Shown one piece after another: positions 1 to 39,271 of a stretch of 64,000 bases of DNA (the stretch's first letter is position 1; the number at the start of each line of letters is the position of its first letter). A program made the translations under genes and the position numbers. Origin of the DNA: a virus (taxonomy: Duplodnaviria; Heunggongvirae; Uroviricota; Caudoviricetes); the IMG/VR virus record IMGVR_UViG_2675903278_000002. One strand, written 5' to 3'. The notes below the pieces were generated by a model. It had not been told where the DNA came from. It ran no database searches and saw nothing but the letters and a program-made list of their open reading frames with translations.

Positions 1-150
1 TAAAGATGGTCAGCACAGCTTACCAAAATAAGACAACTAATTATCTTCGGTGATCTCAATATTTCCCCTGAACAAAGTTGACATGACGCCATAAACCCGT
101 TCTCTGTTTGATATAATTGATACAGATTTTATAAGTAGGAACCTATTAGA

Positions 151-582
151 GTGAACACTGATATTTTTTCTAAAATCATGGCCGATCTGGAGTTCGACCG
201 CGACAACCTTGAGGAAGTATGGCGTAAACAGCCACGGCTTTTAATGGAGTATGGGTCAAAACTAGCGCAGGCAGATCGAGATGTCGCAGAGGCAAAACTT
301 AACCTTGAAGCTGTTGAAGCAAAGCTATACGACACAGAGCGTAAGAACTTGAGTATGAACGGCATTAAGTTTAACGAGTCTGTACTGGACGCTAAGGTTA
401 AAACAAACCCACAGTATCTGTCTAAACGGCAGAAGTTGGATGAAGCACGGCACATCGCAGACATATACAAACATGCTGTCGCCGCCTTTTCGCATCGCCG
501 AGACATGATCGTTCAGGCGTCAAAGATGGCCATCGTTGAATTAGAGCGATTAGGCTCTGAACGCTTTATTACTCCCCGTTGA
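151..582 (+). CDS. hypothetical protein (small helical protein directly upstream of the SSB gene; possible recombination mediator by size and position only)
   Basis: 143-aa ORF, no diagnostic motif recognised; antisense ORF 129..506 judged spurious. Confidence 0.35.
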   Translation: MNTDIFSKIMADLEFDRDNLEEVWRKQPRLLMEYGSKLAQADRDVAEAKLNLEAVEAKLYDTERKNLSMNGIKFNESVLDAKVKTNPQYLSKRQKLDEARHIADIYKHAVAAFSHRRDMIVQASKMAIVELERLGSERFITPR

Positions 583-4167: not shown

Positions 4168-4368
4168 ATGATCAAAATCTATCTATTGGCAGTAACCACA
4201 GGCCTTTCAGTGGCTCTCATCTACGGTTTACTGGTTCCGTCGCTGATTTCTACCAAGAGTGATTTAGCCGTCATGTTTGGAGTTATCGTTGGTTTTGGTG
4301 CTCCTGTAATCGGTCTTATTGCTGGTCGTAAGTTTATCAACTCATTAATCAAAGCAAAGGGGAAATAA
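4168..4368 (+). CDS. small membrane protein (2 predicted TM helices)
   Basis: 66 aa, two hydrophobic segments; coupled to downstream SPFH gene (4-nt gap). Confidence 0.5.
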   Translation: MIKIYLLAVTTGLSVALIYGLLVPSLISTKSDLAVMFGVIVGFGAPVIGLIAGRKFINSLIKAKGK

Positions 4369-4371
4369 GTA

Positions 4372-5202
4372 ATGAAGAAAGGTTTACTTGCAGTTGCTCT
4401 GGCGGCTATTTGCACAATGGGTCTTACTGGCTGCGATCGCGTGGAGCCTGGATACGTTGGCATCAAAGTAAACAAATTAGGTGAAGACAAAGGGATTGGT
4501 GAAGTGGTTGGCGTTGGTCGCCAATGGACAGGTCTTAACACCGAACTTTACGTATTCCCGACCTTCAAACAAATGAAGACCTACGACGAGCCGTTCACAT
4601 TCCAGATGAGTGACGGTACTGCTATTGGTCACAAAATTGGCGTTGCGTATCTGGTTAATCGTGACAAGGTAACGACGGTGTTCCAGACCTATCGCAAAGG
4701 CGTAGACGATATCACCGAATCAGATCTGCGTCAGAAAATTGCCGACTCTCTAAACCGTTTGGCCAGCCGTATGACCACTGACTCATTTATCGACGGTGGT
4801 AAGGCACAATTGCTGGACAACGCACTGAAAGATATTCAGAAAGAGATGTCTCCGGTTGGTATTGAGGTACTGAGCCTGTCATGGGTTGGAAAGCCTGATT
4901 ACCCAAAAACTGTCATTGAATCTATTAACGCCAAAGTAACGGCTAACCAGCGTACTCTGCAACGTCAGCAGGAAGTTGAACAACGTAAAGCTGAGGCGAA
5001 TATGCTACGTGAACAGGCTAATGGTGAAGCTGATGCTATCCGTGCTCGTGCGCAAGCAGAAGCAGACGCCATTCGTCTGCGCGGTGAAGCTCTGCGTCAA
5101 AACCCGAACGTTATGGAACTGGAAGCCATCAATAAATGGAATGGCCAGTTACCGCAGTACATGACTCAAGGGGCTAACACTCCTTTCATTACAGTGAAAT
5201 AA
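4372..5202 (+). CDS. SPFH/band-7 (stomatin/prohibitin-like) lipoprotein
   Basis: signal peptide with lipobox (LTGC), SPFH-like core, Ala/Glu/Arg/Gln-rich coiled C-terminal region. Confidence 0.55.
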   Translation: MKKGLLAVALAAICTMGLTGCDRVEPGYVGIKVNKLGEDKGIGEVVGVGRQWTGLNTELYVFPTFKQMKTYDEPFTFQMSDGTAIGHKIGVAYLVNRDKVTTVFQTYRKGVDDITESDLRQKIADSLNRLASRMTTDSFIDGGKAQLLDNALKDIQKEMSPVGIEVLSLSWVGKPDYPKTVIESINAKVTANQRTLQRQQEVEQRKAEANMLREQANGEADAIRARAQAEADAIRLRGEALRQNPNVMELEAINKWNGQLPQYMTQGANTPFITVK

Positions 5203-5218
5203 CTCCCCTAAAAAGTTC

Positions 5219-5244
5219 AGGCGTCCAGTTGGACGCCTTTTTTA
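5219..5244 (+). terminator. Rho-independent terminator
   Basis: AGGCGTCC-AGTT-GGACGCCT hairpin plus T6. Confidence 0.7.
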
Positions 5245-5293
5245 TCGCAATTATCTTATTAAGAAAACAATTTGTTTAAAAGGATAAGAAAAC

Positions 5294-5719
5294 ATGACAG
5301 CTATTAAGAAACTCTACGATGCCGCAAACGTGGCTCTGGATGTTATTGATGATGAAGTAGCAAAAGGCTTTCCTGAACCTGATTGGGCGCATCAGCTACG
5401 AAACGCTATCGCAGAAATGACCCCACCAGATCCAACCCCCGACGAGACAGACTGGCAGCGATTCATCCGTATGTACGCTCAGGAAATAGGTCCAACGCCA
5501 ACGGCAGAGCAGGCAATGCTGCTGAAATACTTCAAAGAGGCGGGAGAGGATTTACCAATTGATGACTCAGCATATTGGTTCCACTGCGCATGGCGTAAGT
5601 ATGACGTGATATTCACACAAGGCATGGGAAGCAAAGATATGGTTGTGTGGCATCTACTCCATATAGACACAGCCGTTGACAGAGTTATTGAACAGTTTTT
5701 CCCTAAACAAGAAGATTGA
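5294..5719 (+). CDS. hypothetical protein
   Basis: 141-aa ORF preceded by AAGAAAACAATTTGTTT motif. Confidence 0.5.
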   Translation: MTAIKKLYDAANVALDVIDDEVAKGFPEPDWAHQLRNAIAEMTPPDPTPDETDWQRFIRMYAQEIGPTPTAEQAMLLKYFKEAGEDLPIDDSAYWFHCAWRKYDVIFTQGMGSKDMVVWHLLHIDTAVDRVIEQFFPKQED

Positions 5720-5774
5720 TCGCCTATTCATAACTAACAAAATAAGTAAACACTAACCACAAAAGGAAAAACAC

Positions 5775-6050
5775 ATGAGAGTTTTAGTTCGAATCGTTAC
5801 CAGCACTGTCTATGACGTGTTTCCGCTTTTTATGGTCAAAGCCGATGGCCTTAACGACGAAGAAACTGACGCGCTGATCCAGCGTATTCTCGTTGAATAT
5901 ACAGGTCATGACGCTGATTCAGTGATGGTTGATGATGATGGTGTTTGTTGGCATAACGGCAACTGTTGGTACGTAGAAGAGACTCAACAAATCAGTGATG
6001 AAGATGCCGAACATCTTGAGCGTATTTTAAGCATCAGCACTTTTGAGTGA
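5775..6050 (+). CDS. hypothetical protein
   Basis: 91-aa ORF preceded by conserved leader AAAGGAAAAACACATG. Confidence 0.5.
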   Translation: MRVLVRIVTSTVYDVFPLFMVKADGLNDEETDALIQRILVEYTGHDADSVMVDDDGVCWHNGNCWYVEETQQISDEDAEHLERILSISTFE

Positions 6051-6265
6051 GTTTACAGTAAAATTTATATAAGTTAGTATCTACCTATCATGAAGATTTT
6101 TATTGAATACTTGTTACTCATCGTTTCAATAGCTTTTGTCATCGACTGCATTTTCACTGGTGTCATTCGTAAAGTCTTTTCCCCGGTGCACGACGTAGTC
6201 ATAAACGCTTTGGCTATCGTGCTCGTATTTAATTCAGCATTTGATGTAATCAAAGAGGTGGCAGC

Positions 6266-28886: not shown

Positions 28887-29501
28887 ATGTTCGGGATGTC
28901 AATTACTCAATCAGATGGAAGTTTGTGGATGAGTCCAGAATTTACTCCGCAAAATCTGATTAATAAAGGGACAATGTCTACATCTAAAGGTTCTGTTTTT
29001 CAAACATCAATCCCATCAAACAAATCATGCTTTTTCTTCATAAAAAGCAGTAATAAGGCGAACATGATGTTTATTCATGAGCATAGTAACGGATACAATG
29101 CTCTCAGATTGCATCAGGTAAATGGTAGCCCCGGAACAATAACAGTTTATGCTTTTTCTGATATGGTGTTACCACATTCTGGCTATGGCATTGCCATGTA
29201 TAACAGCGCAGGCGCAATGGTGTATCACGGTGAGATGATGCCCCTTGATGCGAAACTTATCACTATTTCTGACCCTCAATTTACAATAGATATGGGGTAT
29301 CCATGTGCGGTAATGCCTGCTATGGTTGGGGTATATAACTATAGACGAACCGATTACGACAGACCTGTCTATGTAACAATGACAGGTGCAACTGGAAACC
29401 AAGTATATAACGGTCAATGGTATTCCGGTAATGTCACATGGGATATTAAGAAGATTTATACAAACAAAATTCTGGTGATAAATACCTCCAAGTATGATTA
29501 G
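28887..29501 (+). CDS. hypothetical protein (low-GC insert)
   Basis: 204 aa from in-frame ATG 2 nt after upstream stop; Tyr/Asn/Gly-rich. Confidence 0.45.
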   Translation: MFGMSITQSDGSLWMSPEFTPQNLINKGTMSTSKGSVFQTSIPSNKSCFFFIKSSNKANMMFIHEHSNGYNALRLHQVNGSPGTITVYAFSDMVLPHSGYGIAMYNSAGAMVYHGEMMPLDAKLITISDPQFTIDMGYPCAVMPAMVGVYNYRRTDYDRPVYVTMTGATGNQVYNGQWYSGNVTWDIKKIYTNKILVINTSKYD

Positions 29502-29604
29502 CCAATGCCTTTATTTGAAGGATTGCCTGTTTATTTCTATTTAGTACCTTTTCATTTTTGAAATAATTGCACCATTAAACAAATCACTTCTTAATGGTGC
29601 AATT

Positions 29605-31290
29605 ATGAATACAGCCCTTTCCATCATCGACGATGCCAACTCAAACACTGCTATCGACTATCGGCAGGAAATGAACGTCATCCACGAAATTGTGGCCGAG
29701 TGCGAGAAAGAGATCGCCTTCATGTATCAGGTACACGACTTCGTTTATGGCGACGAACGCCACAACATGATTAATCGCCTGCTGAGACTAAACCATCGAC
29801 CAGATGAAGATCGCTCGCGTTTAAATCGAGGTTGGTTGGATAAAGTCGATCTGGAATGGGTGAAACAGAATATTTGGGCCGAGTACTGGAGGAAGGTCAC
29901 GGACATGACTAACGTTTTGCTGATCATGCCAGCTTCCCGTCGAGATGAGTGGCGCGAGCAGTTTATAGAGGGCAAACAGGAAGTCATCAAAACTGACAGA
30001 ACCGGCTACCAGATGAAGGTTAAAGAGTTCGTTGGTGTACCGGAGTTCAAAGCAGAAACGGTCATACCCACGATGCTTAATTTGCTGAATGACAGGCACA
30101 AATATCTCTCTGAGCGCGTGTATGGCTTGTTTAAGGCGCTGAGTCCTGCGCACAAGACAAATAAGACAAACGGTTTCAGCGAACGTCTGATAATCGCTGA
30201 CTGCATTTCTGATTTCTGGCGGGACAGCGTTAGTGTGAACTATCGCAAAGAGGACTATATCGACGATCTGCGTGTCTTGCTTCATTTCTTCGCGCACAAA
30301 GAATTTATTACCATCAACCGCACTGCTGAGGTGCTATCAGCTGCGTATCGGGCAAACGACTGCCAGACCGGTGACTGGATGAACGTCGATGGAAATCTAA
30401 TGCGCGTGAAGATGTTCAAGAACGGCAACGTTCACTTTGAAATACATCCTGACGTGGCCTGGAAGTTGAATGAGGTGCTGGCTTACAGTATGCCTGCTGC
30501 AATCCCCGCGCCATGTCGCACCGCGCCAAAAACACGGGCACCAAAGCAGTTCGGGTTAATCCAGAAGACGATCTCCGTGCCGGTTCGCACTGCGCTTCGT
30601 GACGGGCGATTAAGCAAAGACAAAGGCGTATGGTACTTCTCTGATTCAGCTCTCCAGAAGTCGCAGGTGGAAGAGCTTGAGCGCACACTGAGCTTCATTG
30701 GCGGCGTGCAGGAGAAAAAGCACTGGCAGTTCCCGTATGAGATCGGCCATACGCTAAATACGATTGTGGCTACCGGATTAATACCGGATACAAAATCACA
30801 CCAGTTCTACCCTACCCCACGCTTGATTGCTGAGTACGTTGCCAGAGCCACTGAATTGAAGTCTGGTGAGAAGCTGCTGGAGCCTCAAGCCGGACGTGGG
30901 GATCTTCTGGCCTATATCAACGCCGATCTGGAAGATGTTACCTGCATAGAAATCGCACCTCTCTTCGCTGATATCCTGCGCGGAAAAGGGTATACGAACA
31001 CGATTTGCTGCGACTTCATAAAGTGGTCTGAGGACAACGTAGGTTATCAGTTCGACAAAATCGTTATGAACCCGCCGTACTCGCTTGGTCGTCATAGAGA
31101 GCACACGCTGGCTGCGCTGGGGCATCTGAAAGTCGGCGGGCGTCTTGTAGCAGTATTGCCGGGCACTGCGCCAATACTGGACTGGATGACGATGGATAAT
31201 TACGTTTATGCCAGAGGGAAGTCGTTTACCAACGAGTTTGAAGACACAGGGATCACAGTCAGCGTATACGTTTTCAAACGCGTTAAATGA
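29605..31290 (+). CDS. DNA methyltransferase with long N-terminal domain of unknown function
   Basis: C-terminal ~170 aa carry SAM motif I LLEPQAGRGDL and catalytic NPPYS; N-terminal ~390 aa without recognisable motifs. Confidence 0.6.
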   Translation: MNTALSIIDDANSNTAIDYRQEMNVIHEIVAECEKEIAFMYQVHDFVYGDERHNMINRLLRLNHRPDEDRSRLNRGWLDKVDLEWVKQNIWAEYWRKVTDMTNVLLIMPASRRDEWREQFIEGKQEVIKTDRTGYQMKVKEFVGVPEFKAETVIPTMLNLLNDRHKYLSERVYGLFKALSPAHKTNKTNGFSERLIIADCISDFWRDSVSVNYRKEDYIDDLRVLLHFFAHKEFITINRTAEVLSAAYRANDCQTGDWMNVDGNLMRVKMFKNGNVHFEIHPDVAWKLNEVLAYSMPAAIPAPCRTAPKTRAPKQFGLIQKTISVPVRTALRDGRLSKDKGVWYFSDSALQKSQVEELERTLSFIGGVQEKKHWQFPYEIGHTLNTIVATGLIPDTKSHQFYPTPRLIAEYVARATELKSGEKLLEPQAGRGDLLAYINADLEDVTCIEIAPLFADILRGKGYTNTICCDFIKWSEDNVGYQFDKIVMNPPYSLGRHREHTLAALGHLKVGGRLVAVLPGTAPILDWMTMDNYVYARGKSFTNEFEDTGITVSVYVFKRVK

Positions 31291-37080: not shown

Positions 37081-37236
37081 CCCGTCTCCTTTATTTTAAT
37101 TTGCGCAATTGTCGCCTTGTAGTGTACTCCAGCTACGACATTTAATCATTTATGAGAAATGCTGTTATCACATGGCAGACATAAGGCCATTTTGTTACTA
37201 TCAAGCCCCTTTTCACTACAAAGAAGTAATGCCTAC

Positions 37237-39271
37237 TATGACCCAAGTCGCGAAGAAAATTCTGGTGACGTGCGCGCTGCCGTACGCTAACGGCTCAATC
37301 CACCTCGGCCATATGCTGGAGCACATCCAGGCTGATGTCTGGGTTCGTTACCAGCGAATGCGCGGCCACGAGGTTAATTTCATCTGTGCCGACGATGCCC
37401 ACGGTACGCCGATCATGCTGAAAGCACAGCAGCTTGGTATCACACCGGAGCAGATGATTGGCGAAATGAGTCAGGAACACCAGACTGATTTCGCAGGCTT
37501 TAACATCAGCTATGACAACTATCACTCGACGCACAGCGAAGAGAACCGTCAGTTGTCTGAGCTTATCTATACTCGCCTGAAAGAGAACGGTTTTATTAAA
37601 AACCGCACTATCTCTCAGTTGTACGACCCGGAAAAAGGCATGTTCCTGCCGGATCGTTTTGTAAAAGGCACCTGCCCGAAATGTAAAGCGCCAGATCAAT
37701 ACGGCGATAACTGTGAAGTCTGCGGCGCAACATATAGCCCGACTGAATTGATCGAGCCGAAATCGGTGGTTTCTGGCGCTACCCCGGTAATGCGTGATTC
37801 CGAACACTTCTTCTTTGATCTGCCTTCTTTCAGCGAAATGTTGCAGGCATGGACCCGCAGCGGCGCGTTGCAGGAGCAGGTGGCGAACAAAATGCAGGAA
37901 TGGTTTGAATCCGGCCTGCAACAGTGGGATATCTCCCGAGATGCGCCTTACTTCGGTTTTGAAATTCCGAACGCGCCGGGCAAATATTTCTACGTCTGGC
38001 TGGACGCGCCGATTGGCTACATGGGTTCCTTCAAGAATCTGTGCGACAAGCGCGGCGATACCACCAGCTTCGATGAATACTGGAAGAAAGACTCCACCGC
38101 CGAGCTGTACCACTTCATCGGTAAAGATATTGTTTACTTCCACAGCCTGTTCTGGCCTGCCATGCTGGAAGGCAGCAACTTCCGCAAGCCGACCAACCTG
38201 TTTGTTCACGGCTATGTGACGGTGAACGGCGCGAAGATGTCCAAGTCTCGCGGCACCTTTATTAAAGCCAGCACCTGGCTGAATCATTTTGACGCCGACA
38301 GCCTGCGTTACTACTACACTGCGAAACTCTCTTCGCGCATTGATGATATCGATCTCAACCTGGAGGATTTCGTTCAGCGCGTGAATGCCGATATCGTGAA
38401 CAAAGTGGTTAACCTGGCCTCCCGTAATGCAGGCTTTATCAACAAGCGTTTTGACGGCGTGCTGGCAAGCGAACTGGCTGACCCGCAACTGTACAAAACC
38501 TTTACTGATGCCGCTGAAGTGATTGGCGAAGCATGGGAAAGCCGCGAATTTGGTAAAGCTATCCGTGAAATCATGGCATTGGCTGACCTGGCTAACCGCT
38601 ATGTCGATGAACAGGCTCCGTGGGTGGTGGCGAAGCAGGAAGGACGCGATGCCGATCTGCAGGCGATTTGCTCTATGGGCATTAACCTGTTCCGCGTGCT
38701 GATGACGTACCTGAAGCCGGTACTGCCGAAACTGACTGAACGTGCAGAAGCATTCCTGAATACAGAACTGACCTGGGATGGTATCCAGCAACCGCTGCTG
38801 GGCCATAAAGTAAATCCGTTCAAGGCACTGTATAACCGCATCGATATGAAGCAGGTTGAAGCACTGGTGGAAGCATCCAAAGAAGAAGTGAAAGCCACAG
38901 CCGCACCGGTAACTGGCCCACTGGCTGACGACCCGATTCAGGAAACTATCACCTTTGACGACTTCGCCAAAGTTGACCTGCGCGTGGCGCTGATTGAAAA
39001 CGCAGAGTTTGTAGAAGGTTCTGACAAACTGCTTCGCCTGACGCTGGATCTCGGTGGTGAAAAGCGTAATGTCTTCTCAGGCATCCGTTCCGCTTATCCA
39101 GATCCACAGGCACTGATTGGTCGTCACACCATTATGGTGGCTAACCTGGCACCACGTAAAATGCGCTTCGGTATCTCTGAAGGCATGGTGATGGCTGCTG
39201 GCCCCGGCGGGAAAGATATCTTCCTGTTAAGCCCGGATGCTGGTGCTAAACCTGGCCACCAGGTTAAGTAA
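37237..39271 (+). CDS. metG: methionyl-tRNA synthetase
   Basis: 677 aa from [10 protein letters not shown]; HIGH-type [12 protein letters not shown] and KMSKS motifs; near-identical to E. coli MetG as recalled; large antisense ORF 37295..38806 rejected. Confidence 0.95.

Follow-up and report, generated by a model that had tools for sequence, protein, structure and literature searches.

A DUF4942-methyltransferase shared by phages and plasmids of Enterobacterales is probably an orphan N6-adenine DNA methyltransferase

The gene at 29605-31290 of a 64,000-nucleotide stretch of Caudoviricetes DNA (IMG/VR record IMGVR_UViG_2675903278_000002; the whole stretch is hereafter called the window) encodes a 561-amino-acid (aa) protein that is probably an orphan S-adenosylmethionine (SAM)-dependent N6-adenine DNA methyltransferase, marking the DNA of its element against restriction and binding DNA through its N-terminal modules. 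In the list of open reading frames (ORFs) the gene is a single unbroken plus-strand ORF with an ATG start. A first-pass annotation, made from the letters alone, had described an amino-methyltransferase with the SAM-binding motif LLEPQAGRGDL ahead of a catalytic NPPYS, fused to a ~390-aa N-terminal region of uncharacterised type. Both motifs and their order were confirmed (Table 1), and overall that reading was partly supported. In the mechanism we propose, catalysis would reside in the minimal Rossmann core formed by the C-terminal ~170 aa, with nothing behind this core to read DNA. Substrate binding would be provided by the DUF4942 module (aa 86-302) together with a basic linker and small domain (aa 303-392). 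The enzyme would act on adenines in the DNA of its own element and, as a side effect, in that of the host, and progeny or newly established copies would escape restriction in new hosts, alongside the activity of a separate Dam-type enzyme.

The catalytic core carries intact motifs X, I and IV, which are near-invariant across the family and follow the gamma-class order, i.e. QFYPTP (aa 400-405), EPQAGRG (aa 426-432) and NPPY (aa 489-492), with 65 aa between motifs I and IV against about 60 aa in the class. Across 138 aligned family members, conservation within QFYPTP was 99% for Q400, 93% for Y402, 91% for P403 and 96% for T404, with P405 invariant only within a smaller alignment of 21 sequences. 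Gamma-class DNA enzymes, such as those of the TaqI and HsdM families, typically carry an FYxTP ahead of motif I. AlphaFold models generated from the 21-sequence alignment (predicted local distance difference test (pLDDT) of 82 at full length and 81 for aa 1-395) divided the protein into four parts. Helices form an N-terminal extension over aa ~20-121, the alpha/beta core of DUF4942 spans aa ~124-300, a second and smaller alpha/beta domain lies at aa 325-390, and a seven-stranded Rossmann domain occupies aa ~400-561. The predicted Rossmann domain has the class-I fold and superposes on known gamma-class N6-adenine members, and the closest structures were N6-adenine methyltransferases (METTL5, M.TaqI, M.BseCI and CamA). 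Among PDB sequences, M.TaqI was the sole near-match (E = 0.1). In contrast to M.TaqI, M.BseCI, CamA and the Type I HsdM proteins, the protein has neither a C-terminal target-recognition domain (TRD) nor an HsdS partner. The ~70 aa past NPPY form strands 5-7 of the core, and the place of the TRD is taken by the ~390-aa N-terminal region, whose fold is different and unmatched.

This architecture is shared across the family. Pfam DUF4942 (PF13708) matched aa 140-295 with a score of 74 bits (cut-off 25; E = 1.7e-20) over positions 35-187 of the 190-position profile, whilst PHROG 6263, labelled 'DNA methyltransferase', covered the entire protein (E = 7.1e-300; aa 1-561 against profile positions 1-548 of 548). 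We searched aa 1-390 alone against 1.84 billion representatives and retrieved 609 representative-cluster proteins at E ≤ 1e-3, including 132 at E ≤ 1e-30, nearly all of them 510-580 aa in length. A [ND]PP[YFW] motif was present near the C-terminus in 128 of the 131 matches of at least 480 aa; across the family, motif IV lay at a median of 70 aa before the C-terminus and motif I at a median of 59 aa upstream of motif IV. The full-length architecture also occurs in Aeromonas, Pseudomonas and Marinomonas phages. A novel one-off fusion is thus ruled out, and what the first-pass annotation had presented as a novelty is a fixed layout. The gene family is widespread and already catalogued, through Pfam DUF4942, PHROG 6263 and the annotation of gp095 in Salmonella phage SSU5. 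Between the window protein and SSU5 gp095/PHROG 6263 (RefSeq 'DUF4942 domain-containing protein') there is no substantive difference in family, 561-aa layout or phage-plasmid position.

Cores related to that of the window protein (aa ~400-520, 35-37% identity) were also observed inside genes annotated as virion or structural in Pseudomonas phages H66 and Epa33 and Aeromonas phage phiARM81mr (records H91, H93 and H94), and several PHROGs with profiles of 1,200-3,900 aa matched the methyltransferase core only. These related cores may belong to very large phage proteins, which are possibly injected.

The 3-kb region surrounding the gene was 100% identical in DNA sequence to ~110-kb E. coli plasmids (e.g. 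NZ_CP020118.1), 98% identical to phage Cyrano, the phage-plasmid of LF82, and ~88% identical to SSU5. These matches identify the window as an E. coli SSU5-type phage-plasmid. At the protein level, identity was 99-100% to the E. coli plasmid copies and 92% to SSU5 gp095, which is annotated as a 561-aa 'DNA methyltransferase'; the Cyrano copy, CYRAN_90, is labelled 'DUF4942 domain-containing protein'. The same 561-aa frame is found in gp095, in CYRAN_90 and in 187 complete E. coli genomes (at least 80% coverage), as well as in relatives from Salmonella, Klebsiella, Enterobacter, Xenorhabdus and Providencia. The possibility raised in the first-pass annotation, that a sequencing frameshift had joined a separate N-terminal ORF to the methyltransferase, is therefore excluded, as hundreds of independent records and distant relatives share the frame. 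All modules are under purifying selection, with ratios of nonsynonymous to synonymous substitution (dN/dS) against SSU5 of 0.04-0.16 per module.

The gene is accessory, dispensable and sometimes truncated. It was found in 251 of 5,426 complete E. coli genomes, where 247 of its 256 places were on plasmids, and in 564 plasmid records across Enterobacterales. In plasmid p88COLEC-2 (L006, 3001-6495) it is a pseudogene that ends after ~495 bp, with a Type I hsdR directly downstream, an arrangement which suggests that defence or anti-defence cargo is exchanged at this locus. Further records matched the gene over its first ~450 bp only (H110) or carried it interrupted by an IS3 insertion (H28). In addition, E. 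coli AST85 carries an exact match to a 33-nt stretch within the gene (30280-30312, gene nt 676-708) as a spacer of its type I-E CRISPR array at the iap-cas locus (L007, 1501-1533), and this spacer is the one nearest to cas2. Immunity to this family of phage-plasmids has therefore been acquired by some E. coli, with the methyltransferase gene as the target.

The genomic context is consistent with a solitary enzyme. The gene belongs to a long block of genes in one orientation that serve replication, recombination and nucleotide metabolism (SbcCD, RuvC, ribonucleotide reductase, MazG, ThyX, PNK, DHFR, exonuclease, Dam and RNase H). This block includes a second methyltransferase of the phage Dam type (Table 1), labelled 'Adenine methyltransferase' in Cyrano, which bears out the earlier count of at least two adenine-type methyltransferases on the element. 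Searches with Pfam and PADLOC identified no nuclease or defence-system match in the eight flanking genes. Four distant relatives were also inspected: two are located in lambdoid prophage early regions adjoining N6_N4 and C5 methyltransferases, one on a plasmid-like contig near a Dam gene and one on a phage contig. Three of the four adjoin other orphan methyltransferases, and no neighbour in these four contexts had a recognisable endonuclease-family match. The orphan option offered by the first-pass annotation fits these observations. Other phage orphan methyltransferases (PF05869 Dam; N6_N4_Mtase of lambdoid early regions) occupy the same niche, being solitary, placed in early or DNA-metabolism regions and without a nuclease partner. 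Their domain organisation is unrelated and their motif order or class differs, and a shared role is suggested by analogy.

The first-pass annotation found no family for the ~390-aa N-terminus. Its central part is the catalogued domain DUF4942, as given above. In the AlphaFold model, the acidic extension (isoelectric point (pI) 4.9) has helices at aa 20-48 and 52-62 and low pLDDT at aa 1-17, whilst the basic linker and small domain (pI 9.84) have helices at aa 325-332, 352-364 and 381-390 and strands at aa 335-337, 342-344 and 368-375. The SxxHxTN loop of DUF4942 is flexible in the prediction (aa 182-186), and H277 and N289 are placed on a strand-strand-helix element. Fold searches retrieved no solved structure resembling DUF4942 and no nuclease fold for the N-terminal region. 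The translocation or hypermodification module earlier considered for this region was likewise rejected, as Pfam, NCBIfam, PADLOC and fold searches returned no ATPase, helicase, glycosyltransferase or amino-acyl-transferase family or fold.

Conservation was scored in the 138 diverse full-length members as the mean top-residue frequency and the number of columns at least 85% identical (Table 1). Invariant or near-invariant polar residues of the DUF4942 core included R164, S180, H183, T185, N186, R194, D221, R223, W258, D262, H277, E279, N289 and R305. The dN/dS against SSU5 was lowest for DUF4942 (0.038), followed by the linker and small domain (0.089), the methyltransferase (0.107) and the N-terminal helices (0.156). 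Since DUF4942 is conserved as much as the catalytic core, it is unlikely to be a target-recognition domain of the classical variable type, a role that had been suggested for the N-terminus. If specificity varies across the family, the protein hairpin (aa 123-145) and the small domain would be better candidates.

A natural chimera, the metagenome-derived protein P0044, points to the same modular layout. From aa 1 to ~280 it was 82-97% identical to the window protein (40-aa windows), and from aa ~281 to 560 it was 97-100% identical to a Klebsiella-type allele (P0078). Judged from these identities, P0044 is a recombinant between the DUF4942 module and the small-domain-plus-methyltransferase module, with the switch placed only within aa 281-320, where the parents are too alike. 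The switch marks the end of DUF4942 as a border between modules, in agreement with PHROG 9133, which matched aa 328-560 as a single unit.

Table 1 Features of the DUF4942-methyltransferase gene and associated elements of the window, with conservation scores.
Feature	Residues (aa)	Position (nt)	Strand	Mean top-residue frequency	Columns ≥85% identical	Description
Complete gene	1-561	29605..31290	+			561-aa DUF4942-methyltransferase; orthologue of SSU5 gp095 and Cyrano CYRAN_90
N-terminal extension	1-85	29605..29859	+	0.28	1	variable, acidic, helical
DUF4942 module	86-302	29860..30510	+			alpha/beta fold, invariant LSxxHxTN loop, invariant H277 and N289
Protein hairpin	123-145			0.08	0	
DUF4942 core	146-300			0.55	39	
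Basic linker and small alpha/beta domain	303-392	30511..30780	+			accompanies the methyltransferase core
Small domain	325-392			0.35	4	
Catalytic core	393-561	30781..31287	+	0.52	27	minimal class-I SAM-dependent N6-adenine methyltransferase (predicted), seven strands, no C-terminal TRD
Motif X-like QFYPTP	400-405	30802..30819	+			near-invariant across the family
Motif I SAM-binding loop LLEPQAGRGDL	424-434	30874..30906	+			near-invariant across the family
Motif IV catalytic NPPYS	489-493	31069..31083	+			65 aa after motif I
Second methyltransferase, phage-type Dam	197 aa	24136..24729	+			PF05869, E 2.5e-38, 131.8 bits against a cut-off of 28.1
Perfect 16-bp hairpin		29563..29606	+			14-bp inverted repeat AATTGCACCATTAA / TTAATGGTGCAATT, 12-nt loop

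DUF4942 also occurs on its own. An intact 281-aa protein matching the whole Pfam model (E = 3.5e-70) and lacking the methyltransferase half is encoded after the cbtA toxin, DUF5983 and DUF957 genes in CP4-type E. coli genomic islands (locus L013 on an E. coli chromosome, 4169-6128). Among 5,426 complete E. coli genomes, 4,100 were matched by a probe that takes in the DUF957 gene and the beginning of the DUF4942 gene that follows it. In the SpLE4/LEE of O157 Sakai (L012, 8932-10633) the DUF4942 copy is cut to 113 aa and lies beside an insertion sequence. These island proteins of E. coli, Shigella and Salmonella (L0010 of LEE/SRL islands) are homologous to the window protein over its residues 86-302 (E = 2e-14 at 22% identity). 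Residues common to the standalone and fused forms are W95, W116, P146, T156, F176, L179, S180, T185, N186, F191, G274, H277 and N289, whereas the fused-family invariants H183, R223, D262, E279 and H281 are missing from the standalone form. We tentatively propose, as a possibility well short of an even chance, that DUF4942 is a previously unrecognised nucleic-acid-handling module replacing the classical TRD of a gamma-type adenine methyltransferase, possibly with a specificity that is fixed or relaxed. In that case the fusion would be a Rosetta-stone link, implying that the standalone DUF4942 next to cbtA also acts on DNA or its methylation state.

The standalone proteins are also the starting point for the best surviving alternative, which we regard as rather unlikely: a bifunctional protein in which DUF4942 is an autonomous enzymatic, effector or partner-binding module that couples the methyltransferase to a second activity. 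The occurrence of standalone DUF4942 beside cbtA, DUF5983 and DUF957 in widespread islands agrees with this idea, as do the invariant polar residues S180, T185, N186, H277 and N289, shared even by the standalone form, and H183, D221, R223, D262 and E279, conserved in the fused family. The lowest dN/dS of the protein, the flexible invariant loop, the strand-strand-helix element bearing H277 and N289, and the exchange of halves at the module boundary in P0044 point the same way. Set against this, five of the fused-family invariants are lost from the standalone form, and the core has no other candidate substrate-binding domain, such that some N-terminal contribution is needed whether or not the protein is bifunctional.

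A second alternative is that the substrate is not DNA, and that the enzyme modifies host or phage RNA (N6-methyladenosine (m6A) or N2-methylguanosine (m2G) in rRNA or tRNA) or protein glutamine. NPPY-type cores also occur in RNA- and protein-glutamine-methylating enzymes. The only NCBIfam matches were weak ones to the rRNA methyltransferases RsmA and Erm (2e-3 or worse), and Pfam MTS gave a weak, sub-threshold match in the same region (aa 400-520) as N6_Mtase. The PADLOC DNA methyltransferase hidden Markov models were nevertheless stronger on the catalytic core (MADS mad2, 5e-15; Type II methyltransferase models, 2.8e-10), and identity of the core was higher to the DNA enzymes M.TaqI and CamA (25%) than to METTL5 (16%). 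Together with the gamma-class FYxTP and the clustering of family members with other DNA methyltransferases in phage early regions, this makes a non-DNA substrate improbable. RNA m6A enzymes are equally close in structure, so a DNA substrate is something that we infer, favoured because of the higher identity to M.TaqI and CamA, the stronger DNA methyltransferase models and this clustering.

The third alternative is that the gene supplies the methylating half of a restriction-modification system, or of another defence system based on methylation (Type II, Type IIG-like or MADS-like), carried by the element. It is raised by the mad2 and Type II/IIG model matches and by the Type I system occupying the locus in one plasmid, but it is largely refuted by context and very improbable, with no nuclease or defence match in the eight flanking genes, no recognisable endonuclease family in the four distant contexts and no nuclease fold in the N-terminal region. 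No cognate endonuclease, adjacent or fused, of the kind that defines Type II/IIG systems was identified. A MADS system comprises a full-length mad2 with other mad genes, whereas here the match spans 130 aa only of the 492-aa mad2 profile (PDLC04134, positions 265-401) and the neighbours have no PADLOC matches. Kinship to the plasmid-encoded single-strand-specific methyltransferases M.EcoGIX and M.BceJIII was rejected on architecture, these being set apart by size alone (~25-29 kDa, as deduced from the sizes of fusion proteins; PMC7736820).

An orphan N6-adenine DNA methyltransferase accordingly remains the explanation that we favour, and several observations weigh against it. The Pfam N6_Mtase match (PF02384) to the core was sub-threshold, at 13.7 bits against a gathering score of 20.4. 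The DUF4942 module is too conserved for an ordinary variable TRD, and its presence without any methyltransferase in E. coli islands makes an independent function possible. Many neighbours in the examined contexts had no family match at all, and a novel nuclease partner could be among them. Finally, we found no experimental methylation reports for the gene or its family in the literature, where DUF4942 and the methylase functions of SSU5, pHCM2 or Cyrano receive incidental mentions only.

Several further features were observed around the gene. A perfect hairpin at its start (Table 1) spans GGUG, the likely ribosome-binding site, and extends over the first two bases of the AUG, with a predicted RNA fold of -20.6 kcal/mol (z = -5.8). 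Cyrano has an identical hairpin, and none precedes the orthologous genes of SSU5 and Klebsiella pJN2-26; the hairpin is therefore lineage-specific, and a conserved regulatory RNA of the family was rejected. It could serve as a translational brake or a protein operator. Just upstream, two genes (28603-29501) matched PHROGs of the moron category ('outer membrane protein' and 'membrane associated protein') and shared ~81% DNA identity with the virulent phages JenP1, JenP2 and BRET. They are not found at this position in SSU5, and from these comparisons look like a moron cassette, specific to this lineage, that was inserted directly ahead of the methyltransferase gene. Further downstream, 37109-39271 encodes a full-length methionyl-tRNA synthetase (tRNA-synt_1g, E = 5e-166, with anticodon-binding and tRNA_bind domains), which is MetRS in the Cyrano annotation, and a scan of the window with ARAGORN detected no tRNA genes.

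Clinical Enterobacterales commonly carry SSU5-type phage-plasmids, which move between hosts with many restriction systems. Two solitary adenine methyltransferases on one element are a plausible part of how these elements cross restriction barriers. The residual interest lies with DUF4942, which is highly conserved and structurally unmatched, and whose role would annotate a very common gene. One testable possibility is that the methyltransferase relies on DUF4942 to read DNA.
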